A DNA stretch of 64,000 bases from Oligoflexales bacterium (GTDB lineage: Bacteria; Bdellovibrionota_B; Oligoflexia; Oligoflexales; RGVZ01), in assembly GCA_947494335.1 (NCBI GenBank), contig CANLUT010000003.1:22682-86681 (forward strand), given 5' to 3'. A program made the translations under genes and the position numbers. The notes below the pieces were generated by a model that saw nothing but the letters and a program-made list of their open reading frames with translations, searched no databases and was not told where the DNA came from. Shown one piece after another: positions 796 to 61,159 of this stretch (positions within the stretch are counted from its first letter, which is position 1; each line of letters opens with the position of its first letter).

Positions 796-1611
796 TTATT
801 CAGCTGACGTGTAGAAGAATAATGCTGCGTCGCCTGCTGTGGATGCGAGCTGGTTACAGCCTTGCTTTGACCATGCAAAGCCACCGTCACCCCAGTCCGT
901 ACCCCAGGAGTTTCCAATCAGGAATTCATAACCACCGTTTGGTGCTGGACGGTATCCGGCAAGGGTCACCATGTGGTTAATGCCGCGGCTACCGCAGGAT
1001 GTAATGCGTGCACTCGAATTTGGAGAAAAGCTGCTACCAGCTGCAACAGTTACGGCTATAACGCCGTAGTCAAGGATGGCTTGACGTAGCTCATCGACCC
1101 CTGGAGCGCGGTTGTTGGCTCCAATCATGGCCCAGCGTGTTGCTTTTGCAAATTTTTCACCTTTGCATGAGTAACGGGCGCTTGCACGGTAAGGACAAAG
1201 TTCTTCTGTGGTCACTCCTTTTGAAACCTCAAAACGTCCATCCATGAAACCACCGCGACAGCCGTAAGAATTTGGATCATTTACGAGAGCGTCCTGCTCA
1301 GCAAGATCCAGTGCTTCGTCGGAAGAACGGCCGGCTTTGATCAAAGCCGCTTCAAATGCTTTGGTGCGGGCAAATGACCAGCAAGATCCACAGTTACCTT
1401 GATTCTTGATGGGAGTCACCAGACCTTGCTCGCGTGCGTCATAGCTCTCTGGCAAATCACCGCGAACAGTGATGGACTTGTACTGAGCTGGCATTCCTTT
1501 AGGTCGTGGCAATAAACCCGTGCGGTAGGTTTTGCCTTTGATGGTGACTTCATCAGACTCAGCAAAAGCGGCAGTCGATAAGAACAAAAGACTCCATAAA
1601 AGTTTACGCAT
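796..1611 (-). CDS. secreted papain-family (C1) cysteine peptidase
   Basis: Carries the NQGNCGSCWSF catalytic-Cys motif, then INHMVTLAGY (His) and NSWGTDWGDGGF motifs. Start moved to ATG 1611 (MRKLLWSLLFLSTAAFA signal peptide), preceded by AAGGAG (plus-strand ctcctt, 1619-1624). Confidence 0.85.
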   Translation of the reverse strand: MRKLLWSLLFLSTAAFAESDEVTIKGKTYRTGLLPRPKGMPAQYKSITVRGDLPESYDAREQGLVTPIKNQGNCGSCWSFARTKAFEAALIKAGRSSDEALDLAEQDALVNDPNSYGCRGGFMDGRFEVSKGVTTEELCPYRASARYSCKGEKFAKATRWAMIGANNRAPGVDELRQAILDYGVIAVTVAAGSSFSPNSSARITSCGSRGINHMVTLAGYRPAPNGGYEFLIGNSWGTDWGDGGFAWSKQGCNQLASTAGDAALFFYTSAE

Positions 1612-1820
1612 ATATTCACTCCTTCGTGTTTGGAATTGATTCCATCCCTTTATTTTAAGGCGTGGCACGCAAACCTCAAAGTAACGCAGCGGACAATTAA
1701 ATGGGTGAAAACTCTCAGAAGCCTTGATGTGCAGGCATTCTGAGAGTTCCTAGTGTGAGGTATTATAAATTTTTATGAGCGCTTTTTGTCAAAAAACAAA
1801 TGTACTAGCGCGAGGTGTGA

Positions 1821-3436: not shown

Positions 3437-3952
3437 TTACTTCTGCTGAGCGCTGAGTGGCATTCCAAATTTAAAGCCACCAGAGAACGTCCAGTCATCA
3501 GCCGTTGTATTGGTTTGGCTCTCGTCGTGAGCGGTCATGACCTCATCCAACATCTGATCGCCGTTCAGTGACTGCTTATCGCCTTCGTAAATTTTGGAAT
3601 AAACATCACCGTAGTACACAACATAGTTGGTGCCGCGCAGGTAGGTGCCGGTCAAGACCATGGCGGTATGCTCAGGTGCTCCGGGAGGATCAAGAAACAG
3701 GACAGAGAAGATCGTGCGTCCGTGAGTTTTCTTGGTTTTGAATGCATGGCTTTCGAGGCTGTGATTTGCGCTTTTAAAAATAACTTTGCCTTGACCGCGA
3801 GCTGGTACGTCAAGAGTGACTTCGCGTTTGACCATTTCTCCAGAAGGCATCTTATAGAATACTTTGCCTGGGACTTCGGCAGCCATGGTAGCTGAGCCAA
3901 GAAATGAGGCCGTTATAATAAGTACAAAAAGTGAAATAAGTTGTTTTTTCAT
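3437..3952 (-). CDS. secreted hypothetical protein
   Basis: Signal peptide MKKQLISLFVLIITASFLGSATMAA. ATG 3952 was chosen because the GGGAG SD lies about 8 nt upstream, too close to the ATG at 3958. No recognisable family. Confidence 0.6.
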   Translation of the reverse strand: MKKQLISLFVLIITASFLGSATMAAEVPGKVFYKMPSGEMVKREVTLDVPARGQGKVIFKSANHSLESHAFKTKKTHGRTIFSVLFLDPPGAPEHTAMVLTGTYLRGTNYVVYYGDVYSKIYEGDKQSLNGDQMLDEVMTAHDESQTNTTADDWTFSGGFKFGMPLSAQQK

Positions 3953-4096
3953 GATCATGTCTCCCTAGCGTAAGGTTATGAATAATCGCTCCGTCCAAAT
4001 GATGGACGAGTGGCAGAGGATACTCTGATTCCACATAATTAAAAACGTATAATCGTGCTTGTCTACCTTTTTAGGTCAAAAGCTGAGGTGACCTAT

Positions 4097-4957
4097 TTAA
4101 ATGATACCCAAATTTGCAGCCTCGGCGGCGATGAGCTGTCCGGCTCGCCGGAAGAAGTCGCCGCGAATTCGTGTGATATGACTCATTCCGTGCGCTTCTC
4201 CCACAATTGATGTGACATCGCGCTGTGGTAAGGACTTTTGCGGGCACCCAAACTGCCCAAGAGCCAGCGTTCTTTTCGATAACAAATAAAGAGAACTCAA
4301 AATGAAATCCATGCGTGAATACCAGATCATGGCGCGCGCTGATTCATGGCCCGTGTAAAGTTTCGAGACCATACGATACTCGCCGGCTTCGGTTAGGCTG
4401 CCCCTTTGTAAAGCTGGCTGCAGTGACCACCAGATTCCAGGGCGAATGAGCATGGATGATGATTCAAGAACTAGCCTCAGAGCCTCGGCCCAAACAAGGC
4501 TTCCCATGCTATGGGTAATAACAATCGGTCCGGCACTTCCGTAACTGTTCCATTCAAGGATGAAAGGCTGTAGGTATTGCGCCGCCTCTTTGGCCCTTTT
4601 CTCAACGTCATTCATGTAGCGTCGGCATTTCATGAGTTCGGTTAGACCTTGAATGATCTGTTTTGATCGATTTGCAGCAAAAAAACTCGAAGATATCTCT
4701 CTAGGAACAATCAAGCTGTTCCATGTCAGTAAGTAAATGCTTCTGTTTTTTAAATTTTCGATTCCTAGATGCTGGAGCATGGGGGCCACTAGGTCCTTCA
4801 TTGCTTCCTCAGGTCCGTGAAATTCCACTCCATGAATAAATAAGATTGGTGGACAATGGTCTCGTAATTGCCTGGGTTTGGAAATTTTTTCCATGCGACC
4901 GTCATTAAGGTCGAGCAATTTCCAAATTGATGCGTCGGTGTTTAAAACCGCGTTCAT
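4097..4957 (-). CDS. alpha/beta-hydrolase-like protein, no signal peptide
   Basis: 286 aa with ILFIHG (oxyanion-hole-like) and ITHSMGS (G-x-S-x-G-like nucleophile elbow). Family unresolved. Confidence 0.5.
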   Translation of the reverse strand: MNAVLNTDASIWKLLDLNDGRMEKISKPRQLRDHCPPILFIHGVEFHGPEEAMKDLVAPMLQHLGIENLKNRSIYLLTWNSLIVPREISSSFFAANRSKQIIQGLTELMKCRRYMNDVEKRAKEAAQYLQPFILEWNSYGSAGPIVITHSMGSLVWAEALRLVLESSSMLIRPGIWWSLQPALQRGSLTEAGEYRMVSKLYTGHESARAMIWYSRMDFILSSLYLLSKRTLALGQFGCPQKSLPQRDVTSIVGEAHGMSHITRIRGDFFRRAGQLIAAEAANLGII

Positions 4958-5145
4958 GTCCCATCCCTGATCTTTTTGTGAGGTGCTGCATCCATGATCT
5001 GGCTTTCATGAAAAGATCTGTTAAAGACCAAGAAAAAAATTCGAGAAAAGGTATCTGGGATAACTTATTAGACGAATCTAAAGAAGGCCTTATTCATTTT
5101 AAGTATCTAAAATAATTGGATAAATTTGAGTAATACAAAAAATTC

Positions 5146-5173
5146 TAAAGTTGGCCCTATCCGAGGCCGATAC
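5146..5173 (+). promoter_or_regulatory. sigma-28 (FliA)-like promoter P1
   Basis: TAAAGTTG (5146-5153), 12-nt spacer, GCCGATAC (5166-5173), against the enteric consensus TAAAGTTT-N11-GCCGATAA. It lies inside the ORF-track N-terminal extension (5151-5216) and 44 nt upstream of the SD-supported ATG at 5217. Confidence 0.55.
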
Positions 5174-5216
5174 TACCTTACATTTGGCGCAAAAATTTAA
5201 TTTGGAGAGACAGCAA

Positions 5217-6500
5217 ATGATCTTGGACAACAAATTGCGGGCAGTCTTGATCGGCAGTGTAATGACGCTCTTGACCCCTAATACTGCCTTTGCTGGTATC
5301 GAGGTTCAGCCAACTCCCACGCCGACCCCGACGCCAACTCCAGCCCCGACCCCAACTCCAACGCCAGTGCCAACTCCAACTCCAACGCCAGTGCCAACTC
5401 CAACTCCTGAATTGACGCCAGAAGCATTTGAGATGGAGTTTGCAATTACGCCGTTCTCCAACATGGAACATGGATGGCACGTTTTTGAGCCAGGATACCG
5501 TGCTGTTTGTTCAGACGGGCAAGGGGTCGTAGCTACCGCCAAGCTTTCAATTGATGCGGCAATTAACGGTGAAACCACAGATGGTCGTGGCGCTTACCAG
5601 GGTTTAATTATTCGTCCTGTCGCTCAGTACATTCGTCGCGGCGCGACCTCAGGAAATTGTGAGCTTTCCATTTGTTTGGATCAAAACGCCGAGCGAGCTC
5701 AATCACAGGCGAGCTGCAAACAAGTAAGCAGCGTGACAGATGGTGATGCAGAGCGCGCTTTATCATTTAAGCAAAGTGTTCCGTATCGGGTTCATGGAAA
5801 CAAAATCAGCTTACAAACAGGGGCACCGGGGTTATCCGCATGGCATCCGGCTTTTGGATTTGCAGCGCCTGCCAAGTCATTTAAAGATTACCAGTCTCCA
5901 CTTGTTCTCGATATGAACGGTGATGGTGTTCTATCGCTCACCGATGTTTGGAACGAAAAAAAGACCATTCAATTTGATATGGCCTTAGAAGGTCGTAACT
6001 ATCCGACGGGCTGGGTAGGTCCGAAGGATGCGTTTTTGGTGATTGACCGTAATCGTAACGGAGTTATTGACAATTCATCTGAGCTTTTCGGTGAATATAC
6101 CGGAGCTGATATCAACGGACCCAAGACATTTAAGAACGGATTTTCAGCGCTGACTCTGTTCGATTCGAACGCTGACGGTCGTGTTGATGCCCGTGACAAG
6201 CAATTTGAATCCCTTGCGGTCTGGTTTGATAAAAACCAGAACGGTAAGACTGACCGCGGTGAGCTGCAGTCTCTTGCGGTGGCTGGAGTAAAAACAATCA
6301 GCCTTACTTTCGCTGATCTTCGTGATGCAAAGGGACATGTTCCATTAATTGCTGGCAACGAGGTTCGTCTTGCCGGCACATTTGAAACTAATTCCGGGAA
6401 AACACAGAAGATTGCTGATGTTTGGTTTAAGGTGCGGCGAAATTATAACAATGCCACGGCTATGACAAAATGGCTCATGGCTCCAGCTAAGCAGAAATAA
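5217..6500 (+). CDS. secreted Pro/Thr-linker protein with four DxNxDG-type calcium-binding loops
   Basis: Start moved to ATG 5217 (GGAGAGA SD; signal peptide MILDNKLRAVLIGSVMTLLTPNTAFA). It has a (TP)n/(VPTP)n linker, a Cys-containing middle domain, and the loops DMNGDGVLSLTD, DRNRNGVIDNSSE, DSNADGRVDARD and DKNQNGKTDRGE. Confidence 0.75.
   Translation: MILDNKLRAVLIGSVMTLLTPNTAFAGIEVQPTPTPTPTPTPAPTPTPTPVPTPTPTPVPTPTPELTPEAFEMEFAITPFSNMEHGWHVFEPGYRAVCSDGQGVVATAKLSIDAAINGETTDGRGAYQGLIIRPVAQYIRRGATSGNCELSICLDQNAERAQSQASCKQVSSVTDGDAERALSFKQSVPYRVHGNKISLQTGAPGLSAWHPAFGFAAPAKSFKDYQSPLVLDMNGDGVLSLTDVWNEKKTIQFDMALEGRNYPTGWVGPKDAFLVIDRNRNGVIDNSSELFGEYTGADINGPKTFKNGFSALTLFDSNADGRVDARDKQFESLAVWFDKNQNGKTDRGELQSLAVAGVKTISLTFADLRDAKGHVPLIAGNEVRLAGTFETNSGKTQKIADVWFKVRRNYNNATAMTKWLMAPAKQK
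5352..5408 (+). repeat. perfect 24-bp tandem duplication (2.4 copies) inside the PT linker
   Basis: ccaactccaacgccagtgccaact at 5352-5375 is repeated exactly at 5376-5399, followed by a partial copy ccaactcct. It sits within the wider Pro/Thr-coding tract 5310-5408. Confidence 0.9.
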
Positions 6501-6515
6501 GGGAGGAATGATTAT

Positions 6516-7226
6516 ATGAAACGCTCAATGAAGAATCTCCCGATAATTATCGTGTTAGGTGTCGCTACTTTAGGCGCCATTTCTTGTCGCAAGCAAGATG
6601 GAAAGGGTAAGGCTTCCGCTTTGCTCAGTTTGAGAACCGATCAAAAAGGAAGTGTTCCGGGTGGAAGTGATCCTCAAGCATTATGTAGCTTTCTGAAAGA
6701 TAAAGGTTATTTTCCAAAAAACTCTTATCCTACGAACACCAAAGTTTTGTTTTCTACCTCTTATGAGGTGGTTGAGGATTCTGCAGGTCAGGGCTACGGT
6801 GTTGTTGGTGCCGATGGGTTTTTTGAGCAGCAAGGTAATACGACCACCCAACTCCTCGTTTGTCCAGGTGCAAGCAGCATCAGTGGCGGTAAATGTAACT
6901 GGAAAATAAATGGGGATGATGGATACGCGCAGCTGGCGTTTGATGTTGTTTGTAACAAACGCTCGCGGCAGGGAACAAAGATTCATCCTGGCTATAGTCA
7001 ACAGTCAGCATCCTTGGTGAGCTATCAAGCGAGCACCGCTGGTCAGTCGACCTCGGGGCAAGATGCAGTTGAAGTCGTGCTACAGGGGCGTGAGTCAAAA
7101 GCACGCATTGTGTTTGCCAAAGGTGTAGGTCTTGTTGCGACCGTATTTCAGGAAAGCCTAACTCCAGCAGGAACAGCCGAAGTCTTTATCGGCGGAACAT
7201 CGAGTGGCAGCATGTTTGGTGATTGA
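6516..7226 (+). CDS. lipoprotein, unknown family
   Basis: GGGAGG SD. Signal peptide with lipobox: MKRSMKNLPIIIVLGVATLGAIS-C. It starts 15 nt after the previous stop, so it is probably co-transcribed. Confidence 0.7.
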   Translation: MKRSMKNLPIIIVLGVATLGAISCRKQDGKGKASALLSLRTDQKGSVPGGSDPQALCSFLKDKGYFPKNSYPTNTKVLFSTSYEVVEDSAGQGYGVVGADGFFEQQGNTTTQLLVCPGASSISGGKCNWKINGDDGYAQLAFDVVCNKRSRQGTKIHPGYSQQSASLVSYQASTAGQSTSGQDAVEVVLQGRESKARIVFAKGVGLVATVFQESLTPAGTAEVFIGGTSSGSMFGD

Positions 7227-7281
7227 GTTGATCGTTAGACTCTATCAGGACCGATCAATCAGTTAAGGTGGCAGGGAGCTA

Positions 7282-7938
7282 ATGGTGATCAGAAAATTAA
7301 ACTTCATGTGGTTAGGGCTTGCTTCACTTCTCGTGACGCTGGGATCCTGCAAGCAGTCTGGGGATTTTTCGGGTGGATCTGCCAGGCCAAATAAGCCTCT
7401 GCCTGCCGTGTCCAAGCCACCCGTTCAAACGGCTCCTTCCGATGACTGTCAGGACAGTAAGCTCATTGCCGTTAAAAGCCTTAGTAGTTTTATTTATCAG
7501 GGCGGCACGACGAAGTCGTTTGACGTGGAGCTCACCTTTCAGCCATGTCCAACACAAATGAACAGTGTTGAGCTTCCGATCAAGTTTGATTTAGATGCGT
7601 ACATCCAATTTATAAGTCAATCTGAAAAAACAATTCCTTATGAGCTTTTGGTCAATAATGCTCAACAATCCTCGGGTCGCTTGCGGCAAACCGTTGGATC
7701 TGATCTCTTTGGTAAGTCCTGTGCGACGTGTTTTTATTTTCTAACGGACTTTCCTCTCCAGGCGGATCCAAAGCTGACGAAAGCGATCTTGCGCTTAAGC
7801 TTGTCGTCGTTCGCAGTTCGTGGGCCAGCCACGTCCCAAACTGTCGCCGCACAGAACTTTACGGTCCCTCTTCATGTTCGCGTTGGATCAGCTGCTCCTG
7901 TGACAGGCCAGCTGACATTTACACCGATAGGACTCTAA
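7282..7938 (+). CDS. lipoprotein, unknown family
   Basis: AGGGAG SD and lipobox ...LLVTLGS-C. Pro-rich linker after the lipidated Cys. No recognisable domain. Confidence 0.7.
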   Translation: MVIRKLNFMWLGLASLLVTLGSCKQSGDFSGGSARPNKPLPAVSKPPVQTAPSDDCQDSKLIAVKSLSSFIYQGGTTKSFDVELTFQPCPTQMNSVELPIKFDLDAYIQFISQSEKTIPYELLVNNAQQSSGRLRQTVGSDLFGKSCATCFYFLTDFPLQADPKLTKAILRLSLSSFAVRGPATSQTVAAQNFTVPLHVRVGSAAPVTGQLTFTPIGL

Positions 7939-8041
7939 GTAGTCATCCTAATAGGGTGGAGACTTGGTTTTTAATTAGGGCCGCTCGCATCCGCTTAAGT
8001 ATCTAAAAATAATATAAAAAAGATCAAACTCAGAGATTAAA

Positions 8042-8069
8042 TAAAGAAAAGTTCAAAAAAAGCCGATAA
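8042..8069 (+). promoter_or_regulatory. sigma-28 (FliA)-like promoter P2
   Basis: TAAAGAAA (8042-8049), 12-nt spacer, GCCGATAA (8062-8069, an exact consensus -10). It lies 20 nt upstream of ATG 8089. Confidence 0.6.
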
Positions 8070-8088
8070 CCCCTGTGAGGTTAAACAG

Positions 8089-9072
8089 ATGGGTCGGATC
8101 ATTCAAAATTTATTAACTTGTTCAATCGCCGCGGCGCTAACTGGTGGCTGCGGTAAAACTATTTTACAAGTCATGGGTGGCGGATCGACAAATATTGTCG
8201 GACTCAATGCAGCGCCTCCAGGTGAAGGGCTTTATGACCGTTGTGGAGTTCGAATCAAAGATTTAGCAGATCCAAATGCAAAACTTGCGGATATTAAGCT
8301 TCGGGCTGATGTCCGCGTCACCGGCACCGCCTCTGATTTGAAGTACGACCTTCTCTTGCGAGCGAATCTTCATATTTCCGCTTCTGCTGGACGGTCTGTG
8401 TCTGAGACAATTCTTGAGTTGAAGGAGAATAAATCTGAGGATGTCGATGCGTCCGGTAACGGGAGAATCACATCAGATATGGCTAAGCAGGCTGCCTATG
8501 ATAACAGTACTCGTATGACATCGGAAAGCATGTCTACAGGGCTTTTGCTGAAACTTCAGAAAAGCGATCCACAGTTTAAAGATATTGAATGCGCTGTGAC
8601 GTTCACTGGTAAGTCAACCACTGAAACTTACAATTCAATGGGTATTGTCGAATTTACTCCTGGTATTCCAAGTGCTCTCAACCCGAGAGCATCGATGGCG
8701 ACATACGATCTTGAATTGGGCGCGTCTCGTTCATTTACAGTTAAGGCGAAGGTTATCAAGGCGGCCAAAGACTGGCTTCCAGAAGGTACCGAAACTGATG
8801 TGACCATAACTTATAAGCGCGTATCTCCGGATCAAAAATCTACCCCTGGGATGCCAGCTGGTGCTCCGCAGATCAATGCTGATCTAGCCTATGAAATGAC
8901 AACAACGGCAGCTGCCGGTGATGCATGGAGGCTTGGTCTATCCAAGAGACAAGTGTTTTTCGTCAATACGGCAGAGCGCGATCTCGTAGGAGCTTTGGCT
9001 GATATGGGAAGAAAAGACCCCAAGCTAAAAGCTGAGTTCCCGCCGGCTTTTGCGGTTCCAGTGACTGAATAA
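8089..9072 (+). CDS. lipoprotein, paralogue of 10549-11586
   Basis: GAGGT SD and lipobox AALTGG-C. Collinear similarity to the 10549 product, for example FTPGIPSALNPRASMATYDLELGASRSFTVKAKV against FTPALVNSVSPLASPERMRQEIGSGRTFNVTANV. Confidence 0.75.
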   Translation: MGRIIQNLLTCSIAAALTGGCGKTILQVMGGGSTNIVGLNAAPPGEGLYDRCGVRIKDLADPNAKLADIKLRADVRVTGTASDLKYDLLLRANLHISASAGRSVSETILELKENKSEDVDASGNGRITSDMAKQAAYDNSTRMTSESMSTGLLLKLQKSDPQFKDIECAVTFTGKSTTETYNSMGIVEFTPGIPSALNPRASMATYDLELGASRSFTVKAKVIKAAKDWLPEGTETDVTITYKRVSPDQKSTPGMPAGAPQINADLAYEMTTTAAAGDAWRLGLSKRQVFFVNTAERDLVGALADMGRKDPKLKAEFPPAFAVPVTE

Positions 9073-9143
9073 GCAGCTCTAAAAACGTCCCGTATATTTT
9101 TTTCTGCCATCTTAGGTTGTTATCGAGTTTTCAGCTTATAATT

Positions 9144-10418
9144 ATGAATGAATTAATAAGCGGAGACACCTGTTTGCCTGGATTCAATTTGAAATCGGTC
9201 GTCCTATTTCTCACCAGCACTGCTTTTGTTGATATTTTTTTCGCACCGGCAGCTCGTGCACAGTCTTTTTTATTTCCAGGCGCTTCTGTGGGGTTTGAGT
9301 CTGGTCTCTCTCAGACCAATACGAGAGGTCCAGTAGCGATTCCAAACAATCCTGCCAATGCTGTCATAACGAAACGATTTGAGCTGTACGCTGATATGAC
9401 AATCCTTAACGTTAACTATACCTATACACGCGAAGGCTACGATCCCGTGAGTATCAAGTTGACCGCCCCTCCCGTCAACTTCGGTGTTAGTTTTAAGCCC
9501 AACCCTAAAATCGCACTCGGCGCTTTCGTCACACCGAGGCCGGGCGCCAAGCCTCAGGTTGTCAAAAATGTCCCGCAGGATTTGGGTGGTGAAATTACTA
9601 CGGTTGATGTTTATGCAACCCAAGGATCCTTCATCACCGGGTTCGGTCTCGGATTTAAAGTCAATAACAATACCGCTTTGGGCGTCAGCACCATAGAAAC
9701 CGCGGAAGATACCCAAATTGTCGTACGTAATGCTGGGACCACAGACGACAAAAATGCGTTATTGGGTGCACGTTTTATTGGTTCGTCGTTTCAAGTAATC
9801 GCTGGGTTTCGTCATATTCCAGTACCACGACTGACCTTGGCAGGAAGTTACAAAACGGCCGTACAGAAGGAGTACAATGGTCGACTTATTCTGAAAGGTG
9901 ATGAAGATGATACCGTCAAACGAAAAGGGTTTTCTCCCGCGGTATTAGCAGTGGGAGCTGAGTACCGCCTAGGTGTCCCAACTGCGTTTGGAGAGCTTCG
10001 TCGGGAGTTTTGGTCCGCGGGGGCTTCAAGTGTTTCAACAGGAATACCTGGCGCGCCAGCTAAAACTGCGTTCGAGGATACGCTCATTGTGATCATGGGT
10101 GGACGCTTTAGAATCAATAATGATCAGGTTGCGAGTGCATCTGTCGGATTCTATCCACCAAATGTTGGAAACGGGACACCGACCTCTAAAACGGTTAATC
10201 CCGATGCAGTGGGTGGAGTTCAATTTGGTGAGTTTGATGGTATCAGTCGAACCATGTTCTCTGGATCATATAGGGCTTCGTTGAAAAATTTGGATATAAC
10301 GGGCGGCTTTAACTTTATATCTGGTTCCAGGACCGTACCTGCCAATTATCCGGGCGCGGGACGATATGACTTAACGGTGTTCTCAGTCGGCGCCGGTGTC
10401 AGTAAGTACTTTAAGTAG
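9144..10418 (+). CDS. outer-membrane beta-barrel protein, FadL/OmpP1-like (tentative)
   Basis: Hydrophobic leader ending ...FFAPAARA-QS. The N-terminal NNPANAV resembles the FadL NPAG motif. The sequence shows an alternating beta-strand pattern throughout and ends ...VSKYFK. The start is uncertain (TTG 9117, ATG 9144 or TTG 9189). Confidence 0.55.
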   Translation: MNELISGDTCLPGFNLKSVVLFLTSTAFVDIFFAPAARAQSFLFPGASVGFESGLSQTNTRGPVAIPNNPANAVITKRFELYADMTILNVNYTYTREGYDPVSIKLTAPPVNFGVSFKPNPKIALGAFVTPRPGAKPQVVKNVPQDLGGEITTVDVYATQGSFITGFGLGFKVNNNTALGVSTIETAEDTQIVVRNAGTTDDKNALLGARFIGSSFQVIAGFRHIPVPRLTLAGSYKTAVQKEYNGRLILKGDEDDTVKRKGFSPAVLAVGAEYRLGVPTAFGELRREFWSAGASSVSTGIPGAPAKTAFEDTLIVIMGGRFRINNDQVASASVGFYPPNVGNGTPTSKTVNPDAVGGVQFGEFDGISRTMFSGSYRASLKNLDITGGFNFISGSRTVPANYPGAGRYDLTVFSVGAGVSKYFK

Positions 10419-10497
10419 TGAATCCTTTAATTAATGGCCGCGGCACGCAGCTAAATATAACAAATCATTGCAAAAAATAGTTATTTTTCCGAATTAA

Positions 10498-10525
10498 TCA
10501 AGTTTTGGCCGTTGATTCCCGATAC
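10498..10525 (+). promoter_or_regulatory. sigma-28 (FliA)-like promoter P3
   Basis: TCAAGTTT (10498-10505), 12-nt spacer, CCCGATAC (10518-10525). The spacing is the same as P1 and P2. It lies 24 nt upstream of GTG 10549. Confidence 0.5.
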
Positions 10526-10548
10526 GTGACCTTGAGGGGAGCGCAGTC

Positions 10549-11586
10549 GTGTCAAAGCTACGTCTTATATTGATCCTGCTGATTCCAATGGCTGGAGTTG
10601 CTTCCTGCTCTGGCGATGCCATGGTCGATTTGGGTTCGTCCAGTGATGCCAAGGGCGCGAACCGTTTTAAGCCTCCTGGGGAACGTCCTGAAGCCTTCGA
10701 TTTCGAAAAAAATTGCGGAATCGCCGCAGACAAAGCCGACGATCAAAATGCAATTCTGTTTAGCGGAGACTATACGAGCTTTCCGATCATCGTCGAAGGA
10801 TCAAAGTCGGTACCCATTGTAGGAACGATTCCGTATCGAGTTATATTGCAGGCTAAAATTAAGATCGCTGCAAACGCAAAAGGTTCAACGATTGATAGAA
10901 CTGTTACCAAAATTTCTGCTGAGGGTACGAACCCTATTATCAGCTCAATCGTAAACAGTACTGCAGATAAGAAAGCAAAAGCAGCATCGGGTACGACCAA
11001 AGGCGTGCCTTTGCCAATTGGAGAATGGCTCAAACTAACCGGACCGTCAGGAAACCCTGAACTTAAGGACCTTCTTTGCGTATTGACCGGTGCGAAAAGC
11101 TCTACGTCTATATCTGGTGAAGGCACGCTATCGGCGACGTTTACTCCAGCGCTCGTGAATTCAGTGAGCCCGCTTGCCTCTCCAGAGCGGATGCGACAAG
11201 AGATTGGATCTGGTCGCACTTTTAATGTCACAGCCAACGTAACATCGATTCCAAAAACTGGAGGTTTTTTAGAGCCAGTTGATAAAAACTTTAAATTAGG
11301 TTCGAAGTCTGGAAAGGTAACCATAAAAGAGACAAAGCCAGTGCTGTCGGTTGTAAATACTGCTGCCAATATCAATCGAACCATCACATCTGATATAGCA
11401 TTTGAGGTGACGAACGAGTTTCCAGACGGTGCGTACACTGTTGGCTTACCAAAACGAACCGTTTATCTAATCGATACGGCGAAAAAGACGCTAAAAGCTA
11501 TTTATCTGGAGGACGATCGTCCTGATCCATCTTCACCGGATACTGGGCCGGCGACTCCTCCCATAGTGATCGTCAGAGACAAATAA
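10549..11586 (+). CDS. lipoprotein, paralogue of 8089-9072
   Basis: GTG start with a GAGGGGA SD. Lipobox LIPMAGVAS-C. Similarity to the 8089 product extends to the C-terminus (DIAFEVTNEFPDGAYTVGLPKRTVYLIDTA against DLAYEMTTTAAAGDAWRLGLSKRQVFFVNTA). Confidence 0.75.
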   Translation: MSKLRLILILLIPMAGVASCSGDAMVDLGSSSDAKGANRFKPPGERPEAFDFEKNCGIAADKADDQNAILFSGDYTSFPIIVEGSKSVPIVGTIPYRVILQAKIKIAANAKGSTIDRTVTKISAEGTNPIISSIVNSTADKKAKAASGTTKGVPLPIGEWLKLTGPSGNPELKDLLCVLTGAKSSTSISGEGTLSATFTPALVNSVSPLASPERMRQEIGSGRTFNVTANVTSIPKTGGFLEPVDKNFKLGSKSGKVTIKETKPVLSVVNTAANINRTITSDIAFEVTNEFPDGAYTVGLPKRTVYLIDTAKKTLKAIYLEDDRPDPSSPDTGPATPPIVIVRDK

Positions 11587-11588
11587 AA

Positions 11589-11612
11589 AGCGCCCCGAGA
11601 GGGCGCTTTTTT
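11589..11612 (+). terminator. intrinsic terminator closing the exported-protein block
   Basis: agcgccc-cgaga-gggcgct followed by tttttt, immediately after the stop at 11586. Confidence 0.85.
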
Positions 11613-11634
11613 ACGTCATTCCAGGCTTGCGATA

Positions 11635-12159
11635 TCAACCGCGAGTATATTTAAGTTTTGACAGGTCAAACTTGTGAACGTTTTGAAGTCGACTGAGCAG
11701 TGCGTCCAGCGTATCACGGCTCATGTCCGGAGAGCGGCTAAGAATCCAAAGCGTGCTGCGGCGTGGTTCGCTGACAACGGCATACTCGTAATTATCACCT
11801 AGCTCAATAATCCAGTAGTCGCCTGAAAACGGCCAGAAAAATGAAACTTTAAGTTCCGCGTTGGTTTTCTTGTTCACCACTCGAGCCACGCCCTTTGCTG
11901 ACGTCACGTCACCAGTGGGAGAACCTTTGTGGCACTCATTGAGAACATCAACGCGGCCGTCGTCTCGTAGGGTGTACTTTGCAGTCGTGTTGTAACAATC
12001 ACGGCTAAACCACTGAGGATAGCTTGCAATTTCATACCATTCACCCATGTAGCGTTCGATATCTACGTGCTCGACAGTCTTAAGGGGTACCTCAGCATTG
12101 GCTGTCGTCTGGCAGCAAGCCAAGTAGGCTGACAAAACGATAATAAATCTTTTTAGCAT
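11635..12159 (-). CDS. blc: bacterial lipocalin (outer-membrane lipoprotein Blc family)
   Basis: Collinear with E. coli Blc: ERYMGEWYEIASYP, YTLRDDGRVDVLN, LKVSFFWPFSGDYWII, LWILSRSP. Signal peptide present, with a GGGAG SD. Confidence 0.85.
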   Translation of the reverse strand: MLKRFIIVLSAYLACCQTTANAEVPLKTVEHVDIERYMGEWYEIASYPQWFSRDCYNTTAKYTLRDDGRVDVLNECHKGSPTGDVTSAKGVARVVNKKTNAELKVSFFWPFSGDYWIIELGDNYEYAVVSEPRRSTLWILSRSPDMSRDTLDALLSRLQNVHKFDLSKLKYTRG

Positions 12160-12248
12160 GGTCTAATCTCCCTGTGTCATGCGTTTCTAAGGTGGATATA
12201 CACCCGCCCACCAAGAGATTCCAAGGAAAGTTTTCAAGTTACTGAAAG

Positions 12249-12620
12249 CTATTGGGTAAAGGCCATTTTGGCGGCCGCTAAAACCATGAAGACCGCAAAG
12301 ATTCTGCGTAGGGTTTGAGGGCCTAAACCGATGGCCAAATGGCTTCCGAGGTAGGCACCAACAGCAAGCCCCAATGCCAGCCAGAGGCCTGCATGAAGAT
12401 GGCTATAATTTATTTTTCCAGCCTGCCAATAATTCCAAACAGCAAAGACTCCGACAGGTAAAAGTAACGCTATGAGTGATGTTCCGTTGGCTGCATGCTG
12501 ATCCATTCCAAAAATGAACACGAGTATAGGAATGATGACGAGGCCTCCACCGATGCCGAATAGCCCTGATGCAATTCCGGCCGCGACCCCTGTTACGACA
12601 AATCCCAAGGCACTTGTCAT
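12249..12620 (-). CDS. TauE/SafE (TSUP) family membrane protein, half-size
   Basis: 123 aa with about four Gly-rich TM helices (GIASGLFGIGGGLVIIPILVF...) typical of TauE/SafE. AGGAG SD. Confidence 0.65.
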   Translation of the reverse strand: MTSALGFVVTGVAAGIASGLFGIGGGLVIIPILVFIFGMDQHAANGTSLIALLLPVGVFAVWNYWQAGKINYSHLHAGLWLALGLAVGAYLGSHLAIGLGPQTLRRIFAVFMVLAAAKMAFTQ

Positions 12621-25232: not shown

Positions 25233-26651
25233 ATGACCGCTCGTTTATCAGAAGACGCCGTCATTCATTCATTAGACACTGGGTGGCAGTCTCTGGTCTG
25301 GAGGAGCCATTTTCCCATGAAATCAGGCGGTTTACTGCCTGCGGTGAACTTTAAAGCTATCCTTGATGCTAAAGATCCAGTGGCCGCGGCCCAGGCGGTG
25401 CCGCGTCAAGACATGTATTTAGCTTTGGTTTCTGAAGGACCTGAGGATGCGCTTGAGGTTTTACCGCTTCTTTCCAGTGAGCAGTTTGTTGCGATCATTG
25501 ATCATGAAGCTTGGCAGGATGGACGTTTATCAGTGTACCAGGCTATCCGCTGGCTGGATCTCTATAAAAACTTAGGTCCAGAACAATTGTACCGACGATT
25601 TAGGGAGCTCGATGAAGAGTACCAAGTTGCTCTGCTAAATCCTTTCATTGAAATGGTGGATGAGGAAGCCTTTGAAACCTTGGCCCAAGAGGAACAAGAC
25701 AAATTTACGGCCATGCCCTGCAATACCCTGTGGTGGCGAGTAAAAGATGGCGATGAAAAGGTTCAAGAATTTGTACATAGTATGATTAGTGCTTCAATCG
25801 GTGAAGATGCAGCATACGTATACTCTCTGTTAGGGATGGCCGCCATGTTGCCTCCTAACGAACAAGAAGCCCTTATTAAGCAGTTCCGCGATGCGAGACT
25901 TGAAGAGGATGGCTTTGTCACGAAGGAAGAGAGCTTGAGCCTTTTCAGTCGTTATGATGGAGAGCCTTTATACAGGCGATGGGCGTCTAACGCAGACCAA
26001 GATCAAAATAAAATGGTTTCCACGTCCGATTCCCCTGCATTGTTCCTTGATTTAGTTTTGGCCGCAGCCTCGACCTCTGGTCAGGTTGATGCTGTCGCAG
26101 TGGAAAATCTACAGCGAAGCTTTGCTTACCTTGCAAACTCAGTTTCTTCTGCGTGCAATGTGGCTCCTGATGACGTCAATGGATTGTCTAGTTTGCTTCA
26201 GCAAGTTAGATTTTTGGTGAGCTATGGCCTTGAAGTTTTAGCTGACGGTGACACGGCCAAAGGTGTTGAGATCTTGTTCTCGGAATATCCAAAAACTATT
26301 TTCCAATTTGCGCTTTCCACGGTCGACGCCATCAGGTCAGAGGTGATTAGTCGTCTGCAAGCAGTTAATCATCAGACGGCTCAGAGGCTTGATTTGTTTT
26401 GGAAGTCGGGGAAATATGGGGCTGCATTATGGCTCATAGATCGTGAGTTTTTGGATGTTCTCGGCTTCGAAGCATGCGAGATGGTTAAAGGACTGTTTAA
26501 TCGCTTCCCTATGGTCCAAGATGAAATCATTGAGCTTGACCATATCAAGCGAGCCAAATTTAGACCAATTGCAACGCGCCAGGACTTTTCAACTCTTTTA
26601 ACAAGTGTGAGAAAGATTATGGGTGTTGATGGTAAGGAGGTGTTGCAATGA
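25233..26651 (+). CDS. conserved hypothetical acidic helical protein
   Basis: 472 aa with an AGGGGG SD, no signal peptide and no motif I can assign. The stop overlaps the next start (ATGA). Confidence 0.6.
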   Translation: MTARLSEDAVIHSLDTGWQSLVWRSHFPMKSGGLLPAVNFKAILDAKDPVAAAQAVPRQDMYLALVSEGPEDALEVLPLLSSEQFVAIIDHEAWQDGRLSVYQAIRWLDLYKNLGPEQLYRRFRELDEEYQVALLNPFIEMVDEEAFETLAQEEQDKFTAMPCNTLWWRVKDGDEKVQEFVHSMISASIGEDAAYVYSLLGMAAMLPPNEQEALIKQFRDARLEEDGFVTKEESLSLFSRYDGEPLYRRWASNADQDQNKMVSTSDSPALFLDLVLAAASTSGQVDAVAVENLQRSFAYLANSVSSACNVAPDDVNGLSSLLQQVRFLVSYGLEVLADGDTAKGVEILFSEYPKTIFQFALSTVDAIRSEVISRLQAVNHQTAQRLDLFWKSGKYGAALWLIDREFLDVLGFEACEMVKGLFNRFPMVQDEIIELDHIKRAKFRPIATRQDFSTLLTSVRKIMGVDGKEVLQ

Positions 26652-27151: not shown

Positions 27152-28114
27152 TTAAGCTGCGTTGATTACGGAAGCCACAACATCGGCTCCCGTGTGGACT
27201 CGCACCTGGTTTCTACCGTTTTGCTTGGACTGGTACAGCGCAGTATCCGCTCGCGCAATAGCATCCTTGCCGTGCTCTTGCCCTACAATCAGCTGAGCCA
27301 CGCCAAGAGACATGGTCACAGGAATGATTGTTCCTTGAAAATCAAAAACCTGAGACTCGATCGCTTGGCGAACCTTCTCTGCTGCAATACGAGCTCCCGC
27401 ATGATCACTAGCTGGCAGGATTACTAAAAATTCTTCTCCACCGTATCTGCAAACGACATCCGTCTTGCGGAAGGTCTTTTGGAAAATTCCGGCGACTGTT
27501 TTTATGACAAAATCACCAGCAGGGTGACCGTATTTATCGTTGATCTTTTTGAAGTGGTCAATATCGCCCATGATCACTGAGAGGTTGCGATGGTCATTAC
27601 CAACGGGCAGGCTTATAATGCGCTTTTCCTCCACGTTCATGTACTCTTCAAAGTGAGCGCGATTAAATAGTCCAGTCAATGGATCGGTAATCGATTTTGA
27701 AGCTTTGTCTTTATATTTGCCTTGAAGCTGCGTCTCTGCCGTTACGTCTCGAAGTAGTATGAATGCGCCAATGACCCGCCCGTCCAACAGGAAGGGAAAA
27801 TATCCGATGGTAAGATTCAAGTCCGTCCCCTGATTAGTTGTACCAATCAAGTCGTCAATCCTAGTGGGGACTGTATTTTGCAAAATTTCTGCCGCCGTAA
27901 TTGGCTTCTCCATAATGGACAGCGATAAAGCGCTGTTGAAAGAATCAATTTTCAAAAGCTGCTTTGAGGTAATTCCTGTGACCAGTGCGGCAGCTGGATT
28001 TGACTTCAAGATTTTTCCCTGAGCATTCACAACGAGGTATGCGTCGAGCATGGCCTTGCAAAACTGCTCAAATGGCTTGAATGCCTCTAAGACTTGTTCA
28101 TTTGTCGCCGTCAT
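27152..28114 (-). CDS. PAS-domain diguanylate cyclase (GGDEF)
   Basis: DPLTGLFNR, RYGGEEFLVILP (GGEEF active site) and RADTALYQSKQNGRN, with a PAS-like N-terminal half. ATG 28114 is preferred (GGGAG SD); the ORF track starts at 28129. Confidence 0.88.
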   Translation of the reverse strand: MTATNEQVLEAFKPFEQFCKAMLDAYLVVNAQGKILKSNPAAALVTGITSKQLLKIDSFNSALSLSIMEKPITAAEILQNTVPTRIDDLIGTTNQGTDLNLTIGYFPFLLDGRVIGAFILLRDVTAETQLQGKYKDKASKSITDPLTGLFNRAHFEEYMNVEEKRIISLPVGNDHRNLSVIMGDIDHFKKINDKYGHPAGDFVIKTVAGIFQKTFRKTDVVCRYGGEEFLVILPASDHAGARIAAEKVRQAIESQVFDFQGTIIPVTMSLGVAQLIVGQEHGKDAIARADTALYQSKQNGRNQVRVHTGADVVASVINAA

Positions 28115-28134
28115 CTCTGCTCCCAACATTCTTA

Positions 28135-58956: not shown

Positions 58957-59137
58957 ACTTTTAGAAATTTCGATAAAATACATATCTTTACCTAGATTAT
59001 AAAAAATAAAAAAAAAACACGGAAAGGCAGTGAGTTTCAGAGGTCTCGCACGTCTTAAAGATGGTTGCGGGTTTCTCTGGTCAAGACTTCAGGTCCTAGC
59101 TTGTGCGATGACATTGGATTGGAGGGTCTTCCCAGAC

Positions 59138-59165
59138 TAAACTATAGACAGGTTTTCACCGATGC
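59138..59165 (+). promoter_or_regulatory. weak sigma-28-like promoter candidate for the chemoreceptor gene
   Basis: TAAACTAT, 12-nt spacer, ACCGATGC. The spacing matches P1-P3 but the -10 has two mismatches. It lies about 85 nt upstream of ATG 59249. Confidence 0.3.
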
Positions 59166-59248: not shown

Positions 59249-61159
59249 ATGGAAGAGCTTCTCAAAATTCCATCAACCAAGCAGGCCCCAGGTCTCGAGT
59301 ATTTCGGGATGTTGGAAAATGCTCCTATCAACGTCCTCTACTGCGACTTGAACATGACCATTCAATACGTCAATCCAAAAAGTCTTGAGACTCTGACATC
59401 AATCGAAAAATGGCTACCAGTTCCAGCAAAAAAGGTCCAGGGCAGTACAATTGACATCTTTCACAAACATCCGTTGCATCAGCGGAAGATGCTTGCTAAT
59501 GACGAAAATCTTCCCCACAAAGCCGTGATAAACGTTGGTCCCGAAAAGCTTGAGTTGTTGGTGTCCCCAATTTACAACAACAAAAAAGAGTACTCGGGCA
59601 TCATGGTCACTTGGGACATAGTTACCCAGAGGATTTTGGATCAAGAAAACCTGGCGCGCATTTACTCCATGATGGAAAACGCTCCTGTTAACATCATGTA
59701 CTGCGATCGCGATCTAAATATCCAGTACCTGAACCCCAAAAGCCGCGACACTCTCAGGATGATTGAGCGACATCTTCCAATTTCAGTGGATAAGGTGGTG
59801 GGCGCAAATATCGATGTTTTTCACAAAAATCCGGCACATCAAAGAAAGATCTTGGCAGACGACCGTAATCTCCCAATCCAAACGGTCATATCAGTCGGCC
59901 CAGAGAAGCTTGATCTCCTCGTCAATGCTATTTATGACACAAATAAGAATTTCATCGGGACCATGGTGACATGGGATGTAGTTACGAAAAAAATCGAAAA
60001 CGAAATTGAACTGGCCCGCATTTATTCCATGATGGAAAACGCGCCGATCAATATTATGTGTGCTGACTTGGATTATAAACTGCGTTACTTAAATCCGGCG
60101 TCCGTTAGAACGCTTCGTACCTTGGAGAAATATCTTCCAAAGCCGGTTGATCAACTCGTTGGACAATCGATTGATATTTTCCATAGAAGTCCAGAAAATG
60201 CCCGCCGAATTACAAAAGATGATAAGCAGTTACCATATGTGGCTAAAATTAAGTTAGGGCCTGAAACCTTGAAGCTGTTGGTCGCACCAATGTACGACAA
60301 CAACAAATCCTATATCGGACCAATGGTAACTTGGGAGGTTATCTCAGCTCAGATGACTCTTGTTTCGGAGATTACCGAAGCTAGTCGAATGTTATCCGCT
60401 GCTGCGGCTGAACTCAATGCGACTGCAAGCCAGATGACAACGAATGCTACAAAGTCGACAAAAGAAGCAAATCAAGTTGCTGGAGCCTCAGAACAAGTCT
60501 CTCGAGGTGTGCAGACCGTAGCGACCAATACGGAAGAGATGAGTGCATCAATTGCAGAGATAGCGCGTAACGCGAACGAGGCTTCTATGGCAGCCAACTC
60601 AACGGCCCGTCAATCTGAGGTGACAAATACCACCATTAACAAATTGGGTCAGTCCAGCTTGGAAATTGGAAATGTCATAAAAGTTATTTCGTCTATCGCA
60701 CAGCAGACAAACCTTCTGGCACTCAACGCGACAATAGAAGCCGCTCGCGCGGGAGATGCGGGTCGCGGATTTGCAGTTGTTGCGAACGAGGTCAAGGAGC
60801 TTGCTAAGCAGACGGCCCAGGCGACAGAGGACATTACGAACAAAATTGGTGGCATTCAACGAGACACATCGACTGCTGTTGATGCAATTGGAAGTATCTC
60901 TGAGAGTATCCGTAGATTGAACGGAATTGCATCCGCCATTGCAGCCTCAGTGGAAGAGCAACAGGCAACAACTAACGAAGTAGCTCGCGTCGTTCAGGAG
61001 TCCTCTCGCGGCGTACAGTCCATCTCGGAAAGCGTCAAGGTAGTTTCACTTGCGTCAAGTGAAACTCAGATCGGCGCAGAGCAGGTCCTTCAGGCCGCCC
61101 GTTCATTGGGAGAGTTGTCAGAGAAGCTAGAGAGCTTGGTTAAAAAGATTCAGGTGTGA
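59249..61159 (+). CDS. soluble methyl-accepting chemotaxis protein with three tandem PAS domains
   Basis: AAGGAGG SD and no TM segment. Three 120-aa repeats are followed by the MCP signalling domain ([37 protein letters not shown]). Confidence 0.9.
59309..60352 (+). repeat. triplicated 360-bp (120-aa) PAS-coding module
   Basis: The units begin at 59309, 59669 and 60029, each opening M[LM]ENAP[IV]N[VI][LM]... and containing ID[IV]FH[KR].P...R and MVTW[DE][IV][VI]. Confidence 0.85.

Follow-up and report, generated by a model that had tools for sequence, protein, structure and literature searches.

Barrels of the FadL type tend to be regarded as diffusion channels that act alone, and the finding that some of them work together with surface lipoproteins is recent. 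In Vibrio cholerae the VolA-FadL operon co-expresses a surface lipoprotein lysophospholipase with a FadL homologue (PMC3656444), and in BamG-BamH, in Bt1785/Bt1786 and in PorV of the type IX secretion system (T9SS) barrels of the FadL fold bind surface lipoproteins or cargo via their extracellular loops (PMC12578637). On the regulatory side, the sequence TTAAG-N16-CCGATA marks attack-phase FliA promoters in Bdellovibrio bacteriovorus, where it stands ahead of many non-flagellar cell-surface genes, and the FliA regulon of the Bdellovibrionota reaches far past the flagellum (PMC3627812). Here we describe six consecutive plus-strand open reading frames (ORFs), W1 to W6, that span positions 5217-11586 of a 64 kb window (the whole stretch of DNA analysed, from contig CANLUT010000003.1, to which all coordinates refer) and that belong to an uncultured freshwater member of the order Oligoflexales, phylum Bdellovibrionota. 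Judged from gene order across species, the conserved functional unit is the trio W4-W5-W6, a barrel of predicted FadL fold between two paralogous lipoproteins, and W1-W3 are a separate, clade-specific neighbour with the same type of promoter. We propose, tentatively and with somewhat less than even confidence, that in the trio a channel of the FadL type and surface lipoproteins form a complex, under the control of FliA, that captures or takes up hydrophobic molecules. The genes, with product lengths in amino acids (aa), are the following.

5217-6500, plus strand: W1, a 427-aa secreted protein
6516-7226, plus strand: W2, lipoprotein of 236 aa (Cys24), with 4 other Cys and no family, confined to the clade of the window
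7282-7938, plus strand: W3, lipoprotein of 218 aa (Cys23), with 4 other Cys and no family, confined to the clade of the window
8089-9072, plus strand: W4, lipoprotein of 327 aa (Cys21), the A paralogue in the conserved trio
9174-10418, plus strand: W5, a 414-aa outer-membrane protein (424 aa from an alternative ATG at 9144)
10549-11586, plus strand: W6, lipoprotein of 345 aa (Cys20), the B paralogue in the trio and the fastest-diverging gene of the block

The W5 barrel is rare: a search of 5.8 billion protein clusters brought up no more than 30 relatives, none carrying a Pfam domain, and the barrel is present in 10 of 185,579 GTDB species. Five of these are labeled Oligoflexales, and there is one each of Pseudobacteriovorax, 'Bdellovibrio sp.', 'Deltaproteobacteria', 'bacterium' and a Polynucleobacter bin, the last probably a mislabel; several of the barrel-bearing genomes come from lake metagenomes. 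At all barrel loci, including those on metagenome contigs, a W4-like gene lies directly upstream of the barrel gene and one or two W6-like genes lie directly downstream, on the same strand or convergent. Close relatives, of which the nearest (L005-L008) has flanking DNA 90-98% identical to that of the window, retain all six genes together with the same neighbours. Distant relatives, with barrels of ∼50-57% identity, occupy a different neighbourhood with HPF and RecD2 upstream and are devoid of W1-W3, and in this clade the W6-like genes are inverted, and so convergent, with their own sigma-28-like promoter retained. Because the distant loci keep the W4-like, barrel and W6-like genes but not W1-W3, we take the trio to be the unit that is conserved. 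Synteny thus splits what the original prediction had treated as one six-gene module, while its suggestion that conserved synteny be sought in related genomes was rewarded for the barrel and its lipoproteins, which adjoin in every barrel-bearing genome.

That W5 might be a FadL-like beta-barrel had also been proposed, and the fold is recovered in an AlphaFold2 model computed from a 29-sequence alignment; the structure is predicted, not solved. The model (predicted local distance difference test score, pLDDT, 79.7; predicted template modelling score, pTM, 0.75) contains 14 strands as assigned by DSSP, with periplasmic turns of 2-4 residues and longer outer loops, and a Foldseek search of the PDB returns E. 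coli FadL as top match (E 2e-18, template modelling score, TM, 0.68), with P. aeruginosa FadL, TodX/TbuX and Bacteroidota BamG chains as further matches. Those to FadL, TodX and TbuX cover E 2e-18 to 5e-13 and TM 0.54-0.69. Some 39 residues stand ahead of strand 1, including an invariant N69-P70-A71 at mature positions 30-32. In FadL the NPA motif occupies mature residues 33-35, and the correspondence between the two proteins is one of position only, no alignment having been found by hhalign; FadL entries for 'delta NPA', N33A and P34A mutants are among the PDB matches to the W5 model. A hand alignment of the W5 plug with FadL was kept as a lead only, hhalign being without signal. In the model strand 2 is broken at the invariant P109-P110 and strand 3 at the invariant P131-R132-P133, and in the sequence a conserved aromatic occupies mature position 3 and the protein ends in YFK, with an aromatic residue at its C-terminus. 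To the extent that the model can be relied upon, W5 may be a transport-competent FadL-type channel.

W5 might instead be a scaffold or shuttle that anchors W4 and W6 or aids their display at the surface, in the manner of BamG with BamH or of PorV with its T9SS cargo. The variable lipoproteins would then be the functional part, serving as motile-phase adhesins or as recognition proteins for prey, host algae or surfaces. This is the main rival explanation, which we consider possible but, on balance, unlikely. It has direct precedent in BamG and PorV, which bind surface proteins by their outer loops, and in Bt1785/Bt1786, a pair paralogous to BamG-BamH in which, as with W5 and its neighbours, barrel and lipoprotein are encoded side by side, and BamG chains (9hiv_F, 9n2d_B and 9hjm_F, E 7e-15 to 4e-13) are among the top structural matches of the W5 model. 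The details of W5 point the other way. BamG has a conserved 10-12-residue N-terminal extension that passes through the lateral opening and sets it apart from transporting FadL channels (PMC12578637). W5 has no such extension, the distance from mature N-terminus to NPA being 29 residues as compared with 32 in FadL (by length). The first 21 mature residues of W5 (QSFLFPGAS.TFESGLSQTNT), in the putative plug with its invariant NPA, are the best conserved of the family, with a majority fraction of 0.90 against 0.71 for the strands, which is unexpected for a pure scaffold. The outer loops are as conserved as the strands (0.69 vs 0.71), unlike the variable, BamH-binding loops of BamG, which in addition derives from a different phylum. 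Neither a T9SS nor a Bacteroidota-type BAM context surrounds the trio, no bamA is adjacent at the loci examined, and W4 and W6 were unrelated to BamH in every search made.

All six products of the block had been said to carry export signals, and this holds when the signals are assigned by rules, as was done here in place of a predictor: W1 and W5 have Sec signal peptides and W2, W3, W4 and W6 have lipoboxes. In W1 the hydrophobic core is followed by TAFA, with cleavage before GIEV, and in W5 the signal peptide ends in APAARA ahead of QSF, the combination of AxA and QSF being kept in 27 of the 29 family members. The lipoboxes (AIS-C24 in W2, LGS-C23 in W3, TGG-C21 in W4 and VAS-C20 in W6) each lie behind a hydrophobic core with a Kyte-Doolittle (KD) value of 2.2-3.1; the lipid-bearing Cys is preserved in the orthologues of the lipoproteins, and those of W4 have a lipobox of the form L-[STA]-G-C. 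With signal peptide, lipobox and invariant Cys, these four proteins are, by sequence, bacterial lipoproteins of the kind processed by Lgt and LspA. Four Cys in each of mature W1, W2 and W3, and two conserved Cys common to W4 and W6, fit an oxidising compartment.

The lipoproteins to either side of the barrel are paralogues, as predicted, with 25% identity over 307 aa (E 4e-16). In both, a tether of ∼30 residues precedes the two conserved Cys, and in W6 the tether leads into a beta-rich domain that is well defined in the predicted model (pLDDT 80.5 overall and >85 across most of residues 50-345). No significant structural neighbour of W6 emerged from Foldseek, the best E values being 0.015 against the PDB and 0.025 against BFVD with TM below 0.3, and weak matches to porins and sliding clamps were set aside as noise. 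The W4/W6 family likewise has no real sequence match in the PDB, and a Pfam scan of the alignment members at E 10 gave nothing meaningful. A profile search yielded 165 representatives in 1.84 billion proteins, and a metagenome scan with the lipoprotein alignment one locus only. Among the more distant relatives are lipoproteins of 507-943 aa in which a W4/W6-like domain is embedded (P0104, P0093, P0086 and P0082), and in P0104 Big_9/cadherin-like domains precede it. Fusion of this kind to Ig/cadherin-like domains would be in keeping with the display of adhesins by W5, as would the tandem paralogue arrays found in the family, which are typical of surface proteins, and the hypervariability of W6 beside a conserved barrel. 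A sigma-28-like motif lies 5' of a distant lipoprotein relative in L018.

The promoters are a further line of evidence for the proposed complex. Three look-alike sigma-28-type promoters had been noted in the block, and the motif THAAG-N16-CCGATA does occur exactly three times in the 64 kb window, in each case on the plus strand and ahead of W1, W4 or W6, against a chance expectation of 0.06; none of 100 shuffled sequences reached three. An exact 14-nucleotide (nt) direct repeat, TTAAGTATCTAAAA, accompanies two of the promoters.

5099-5112, plus strand: first copy of the upstream box TTAAGTATCTAAAA, 47 nt ahead of the -35 element of P1
5146-5172, plus strand: P1, sigma-28 (FliA)-type promoter, TAAAG-N16-CCGATA, 5' of W1
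7995-8008, plus strand: second copy of the upstream box TTAAGTATCTAAAA, 47 nt ahead of the -35 element of P2
8042-8068, plus strand: P2, sigma-28-type promoter, TAAAG-N16-CCGATA, 5' of W4-W5
10498-10524, plus strand: P3, sigma-28-type promoter, TCAAG-N16-CCGATA, 5' of W6

The motifs are placed 24-44 nt ahead of the start codons and recur in other species. A P1-type motif is also found 5' of the W1 orthologues in L005 and L010, the P2-type motif is kept 5' of W4-like genes in L005, L009, L001, L003, L012, L013 and L015, as well as, but for a single mismatch, in L017, and the P3-type motif is kept 5' of the W6 orthologues in L005, L009 and L010. Where the W6-like genes are inverted (L003, L014 and L016) the motif is found 5' of them on the opposite strand, so that it has followed the gene through the inversion. 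Since the spacers diverge across loci while the boxes persist, the motif is, from sequence comparison, a phylogenetic footprint. The TTAAGTATCTAAAA boxes are partly preserved in L005 and L010, and a CTGAAAATA-like box, C(T/A)GAAAATA, is comparably placed 5' of W4-like genes in the distant loci L001, L003, L012 and L015, and could represent the binding site of a regulator or an element of the UP type. A scan for the sigma-70 consensus returned fewer sites than expected by chance.

Compared with the attack-phase consensus of B. bacteriovorus, TTAAG-N16-CCGATA, the three motifs of the window agree at 10 of 11 positions and have identical spacing, which points to FliA as the sigma factor that would serve W1, W4-W5 and W6. 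The host is, however, an uncultured member of the Oligoflexales and not of the Bdellovibrionales, so that both FliA dependence and a two-phase life cycle are putative here. A methyl-accepting chemotaxis protein with a PAS domain is also encoded in the window (59249-61159), behind a degenerate sigma-28-like site, TAAAC-N16-CCGATG, at 59137-59163, and a chemoreceptor gene with such a site suggests that the organism is motile and chemotactic. Motile-phase cells probably carry the trio as a surface apparatus. An attack-phase surface apparatus had been offered as a hypothesis in case the organism should prove a predator, and since the organism belongs to the Bdellovibrionota, order Oligoflexales, that suggestion is a fair one, for the motile phase as for the attack phase; any link of the trio to predation is hypothetical.

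The promoters might instead mark late flagellar genes, in which case the trio would be a structural accessory of the flagellum, its sheath or an outer-membrane disc, much as FlgO, FlgP and FlgT are in Vibrio. Sigma-28-type promoters ahead of all three transcription units of the block and a chemoreceptor gene in a probably motile organism are what one would expect. We nevertheless regard this as very improbable: Pfam and NCBIfam assign no product to a flagellar family, none of the loci has flagellar genes next to it, hypervariability is not expected of basal-body parts, and the known breadth of the Bdellovibrionota FliA regulon, which extends far beyond the flagellum, weakens the argument from the promoters.

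The trio also stands out from its surroundings in how far it has diverged. Between the window and L005, nucleotide identity falls to 68-86% over ∼8000-11500 (7450-10950 in L005) from 90-98% in the flanks, and the synonymous divergence (dS) is 1.6 for W4, 0.9 for W5 and 2.2 for W6, as against 0.14-0.40 for W1-W3 and the flanking genes. W6 is 72% identical to the L005 allele and 77% identical to that of L009, a different species, as compared with identities for ribosomal protein S1 of 99% and 88%, respectively; W6 is thus as variable inside the species as it is between species. Old or imported alleles that selection from outside has kept at the locus would give such a pattern, which fits, without proving, exposure of W6 and W4 at the surface. 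Exposure would also be in line with the long relatives of the family being lipoproteins, one of them with Big_9/cadherin domains. To judge from the island, W6 and W4 are likely to be under such selection, whether by phage, grazers or partner specificity, and are therefore candidates for determining specificity in a group among whose members are predators of algae and of bacteria.

From these elements the following picture of a FliA-controlled capture and uptake complex can be assembled. W4 and W5 would be transcribed as an operon from P2 and W6 from its own promoter, P3. W4 and W6 would be outer-membrane lipoproteins in which a disulfide-stabilised, beta-rich domain sits on or beside the barrel at the cell surface during the motile phase, where they could capture a hydrophobic ligand, for example a lipid, a fatty acid or a related molecule, that derives from the surroundings, from prey or from a host. 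The ligand would then be passed to W5, a highly divergent channel, with entry via a plug-gated lumen and a lateral opening at a kinked strand. W6, and to a lesser extent W4, would be the exposed, rapidly diversifying component. The genes with their export signals, the paralogy, the fold assignment, the synteny, the promoter motifs and the pattern of divergence are results of the comparisons above; complex formation, surface exposure, the nature of the substrate and dependence on FliA are what we infer from them.

A number of observations weigh against this reading. The assignment of W5 to FadL rests on a predicted structure, because a sequence-level link to FadL is lacking: none of the 29 barrel family members matches Pfam Toluene_X (PF03349) at E <= 10, the family profile has no match among PDB sequences, and hhalign of the family with E. 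coli FadL gives a probability of 0.7%. The part of the plug that comprises residues 33-54, including the first ∼15 mature residues, is modelled with pLDDT <50. No genes for fatty-acid activation or degradation are adjacent to the trio. There is no invariant Ser or His among the W4/W6 relatives, whose invariant residues are only C, G, D, A, F, P, E and R, and a VolA-like lipase activity of W4 or W6 is therefore unlikely. The ratio of nonsynonymous to synonymous divergence (dN/dS) is <0.15 for all six genes, with dS saturated for W4 and W6 in the comparison of the window with L005, and because of these low values the W4-W6 island looks like old or imported alleles and not like demonstrable positive selection. 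Distant W4/W6 relatives, for which look-ups gave short contigs or no DNA, are arrayed in tandem, two or three paralogues together, and have no barrel next to them (L022, 425-2497, and the P0066 and P0107 contigs), from which it follows that the lipoproteins do not strictly need a dedicated barrel. Finally, W4 and W6 may face either side of the outer membrane. On the P0066 contig a weak Toluene_X protein is encoded four genes away, which we did not count as linkage.

The last two of the points against the complex lead to an explanation without one, in which W4 and W6 face the periplasm and serve structural or envelope maintenance, and W5 is an independent channel for hydrophobic solutes, the three being merely co-regulated. 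According to the E. coli +2 rule, lipoproteins such as W4 (+2 = G) and W6 (+2 = S) would by default reside in the inner leaflet of the outer membrane, and distant members of the family do exist without an adjacent barrel. Yet the adjacency of the three genes has outlasted the inversion of W6 and, over 10 species, the replacement of all flanking genes, and the steep local divergence of W4-W6 would be unusual for periplasmic housekeeping lipoproteins, so that we hold this explanation to be decidedly doubtful.

A bolder form of the proposal than the capture and uptake complex can also be framed, which we put down as improbable, although a shade less so than co-regulation without a complex. Here the trio would be an Oligoflexales-specific machine of a kind not described before, produced under FliA in the motile or attack phase alone, in which a cryptic channel of the FadL fold carries two lipoproteins of a new fold and the hypervariable W6 decides the prey, algal host or lipid source to be recognised and harvested, and W1 would be a non-cleaving or chemically altered, Sec-exported offshoot of the clip-and-link proteins with lipoproteins of its own.

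W1-W3 are best regarded as a separate addition specific to the clade. In W1 the Sec signal peptide (aa 1-26) is followed by a linker rich in Pro and Thr (aa 32-∼66, nt 5310-5415). Next come a domain with 4 Cys and no known family (aa ∼70-227) and a Ca2+-binding domain (aa 228-404, nt 5898-6428) that aligns with residues 415-582 of Neisseria FrpC (PDB 6SJW; phmmer E 4.1e-25). The original prediction had recognised Ca2+-binding loops but called the module generic and, this module and a tentative barrel apart, had placed none of the six products in a characterised family. The loops are indeed there, and W2-W6 have no Pfam or NCBIfam match, but the W1 domain is specifically like FrpC's self-processing module (SPM; E 4e-25). 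The loops DxNxDG, DRNRNGVIDNSSE, DSNADGRVDARD and DKNQNGKTDRGE align with the four EF-hand-like Ca2+ sites of FrpC, and both Trp of the pi-pi pair are kept together with a residue equivalent to D579, so that W1 resembles the SPMs of FrpC, FrpA and ApxIVA in each of these respects. Ahead of the module W1 reads DYQS-PLVLDMNGDG, with Ser227-Pro228 (nt 5895-5900) for Asp-Pro, and the same is found in L005, L007 and L010. In the published SPM mechanism a reactive anhydride arises when the side chain of the Asp turns on the carbonyl of that residue (PMC7078468). With Ser in place of this nucleophile canonical clip-and-link by Asp-Pro self-cleavage is unlikely in W1, and the protein would be a Ca2+-folding SPM in which self-cleavage has probably been lost, a natural test of the SPM fold without the reactive aspartate. 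W1 further differs from the FrpC-type RTX proteins in its Sec signal peptide, Pro/Thr linker and length of 427 aa, and in being without RTX repeats or a type I secretion context; no RTX or HemolysinCabind match was found in W1 with Pfam or NCBIfam.

W2 and W3 have no Pfam, NCBIfam or PDB sequence match, and that they are paralogues of each other was rejected on comparison of their sequences. The lipoprotein partner of FrpC, FrpD, is encoded in the same operon as FrpC (PMC5233953). W1 too shares an operon with lipoprotein genes, and by analogy W2 or W3, small and Cys-rich, may be its partner. The W1 linker is made up of 6-18-nt repeats and is the sole stretch of low identity (80.6%) in W1-W3 relative to L005, which has a different Pro-rich stretch (PPPEVKPP...) in this place.

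Gene spacing and motif positions together indicate that the block comprises three transcription units, W1-W2-W3, W4-W5 and W6. The gaps are 15 and 55 nt within W1-W3 and ∼100 nt, free of the motif, between W4 and W5, as compared with 150 and 130 nt at the internal promoters, and a Shine-Dalgarno-like GGAG/GAGG lies ahead of each of the six genes. These genes were found at the places given for them originally, with the difference that W5 more likely starts at TTG 9174 than at 9144, because GGAG is present at 9161-9164 and a 92%-identical, 414-aa orthologue (P0001) begins there. Long antisense ORFs within W1, W5 and W6 were treated as non-genes for want of support, and an Rfam scan of 4000-12500 gave nothing above noise. 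The boundaries of the block stand as first described, with opposite-strand genes on either side (4097-4957 and 11635-12159, both minus strand) and a strong terminator at its end, which we locate as follows.

11585-11611, both directions: intrinsic terminator common to W6 and the convergent blc gene (12-bp stem, free energy, dG, -20.1 kcal/mol, z -4.8, T-runs on either side)

The gene that converges on W6 (11635-12159, minus strand) encodes a bacterial lipocalin of the Blc type (Lipocalin_2, E 7e-46), itself a probable lipoprotein (...YLAC-C). The adjacency of lipocalin and W6 is kept in L005, L009 and L010 and not in the distant clade; a lipid-binding lipocalin beside W6 is suggestive. On the other side, divergent from W1 and kept in L005, are genes for a 286-aa protein of no family and without signal peptide (4097-4957, minus strand), in which an HSMG motif resembles the nucleophile elbow of hydrolases, and for a 173-aa secreted protein of no family (3437-3958, minus strand). 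A papain-family cysteine protease (Peptidase_C1; 796-1668, minus strand), a GGDEF diguanylate cyclase (27152-28129, minus strand) and a DUF6178 protein (25233-26651, plus strand) are also encoded in the window and have no evident link to the block.

Returning to the trio and its likeness to described systems, outer-membrane barrels beside the lipoproteins they serve are also the gene logic of Slam, or type XI secretion. W5 and 28 relatives, however, have no DUF560, TPR or any other Pfam match and have structural neighbours of the FadL type, and W6, unlike the substrates of Slam, matches no TbpB/fHbp-type fold in the PDB. Slam was dropped from consideration, as were LptDE-like plugs, MtrABC and flagellar H-ring proteins, there being no match in family, size or cofactor motif. 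W5 resembles the channels FadL, TodX and TbuX in its predicted 14-stranded barrel of ∼385 mature residues, in an NPA at a similar distance from the mature N-terminus, in the conserved aromatic at mature position 3 and in a C-terminal aromatic; its putative N-terminal plug and a strand with invariant prolines that may be kinked would be further likenesses. W5 differs from these PF03349 proteins in having no detectable sequence similarity to them and in belonging to a family, 30 protein clusters from 10 species, that is always tied to two lipoprotein genes and to sigma-28-type promoters. For the probable co-transcription of a lipoprotein gene with that of a FadL-type barrel in W4-W5 there is a precedent in VolA-FadL, where, in the proposed model, a lipid is prepared or captured by a surface lipoprotein and imported by the barrel. 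Unlike VolA, W4 and W6 have no Ser-hydrolase motif and a fold without match, and there are two paralogous lipoproteins in place of one enzyme.

What is new here is a barrel family missed by profile searches, together with a lipoprotein family that has no fold neighbour, at a locus of narrow distribution. From the conservation of the sigma-28 promoters it would seem that in the Oligoflexales, as in Bdellovibrio, FliA controls more than the flagellar genes, and the theme of a FadL barrel together with a surface lipoprotein, as in VolA, BamG-BamH and PorV, would extend to another phylum.

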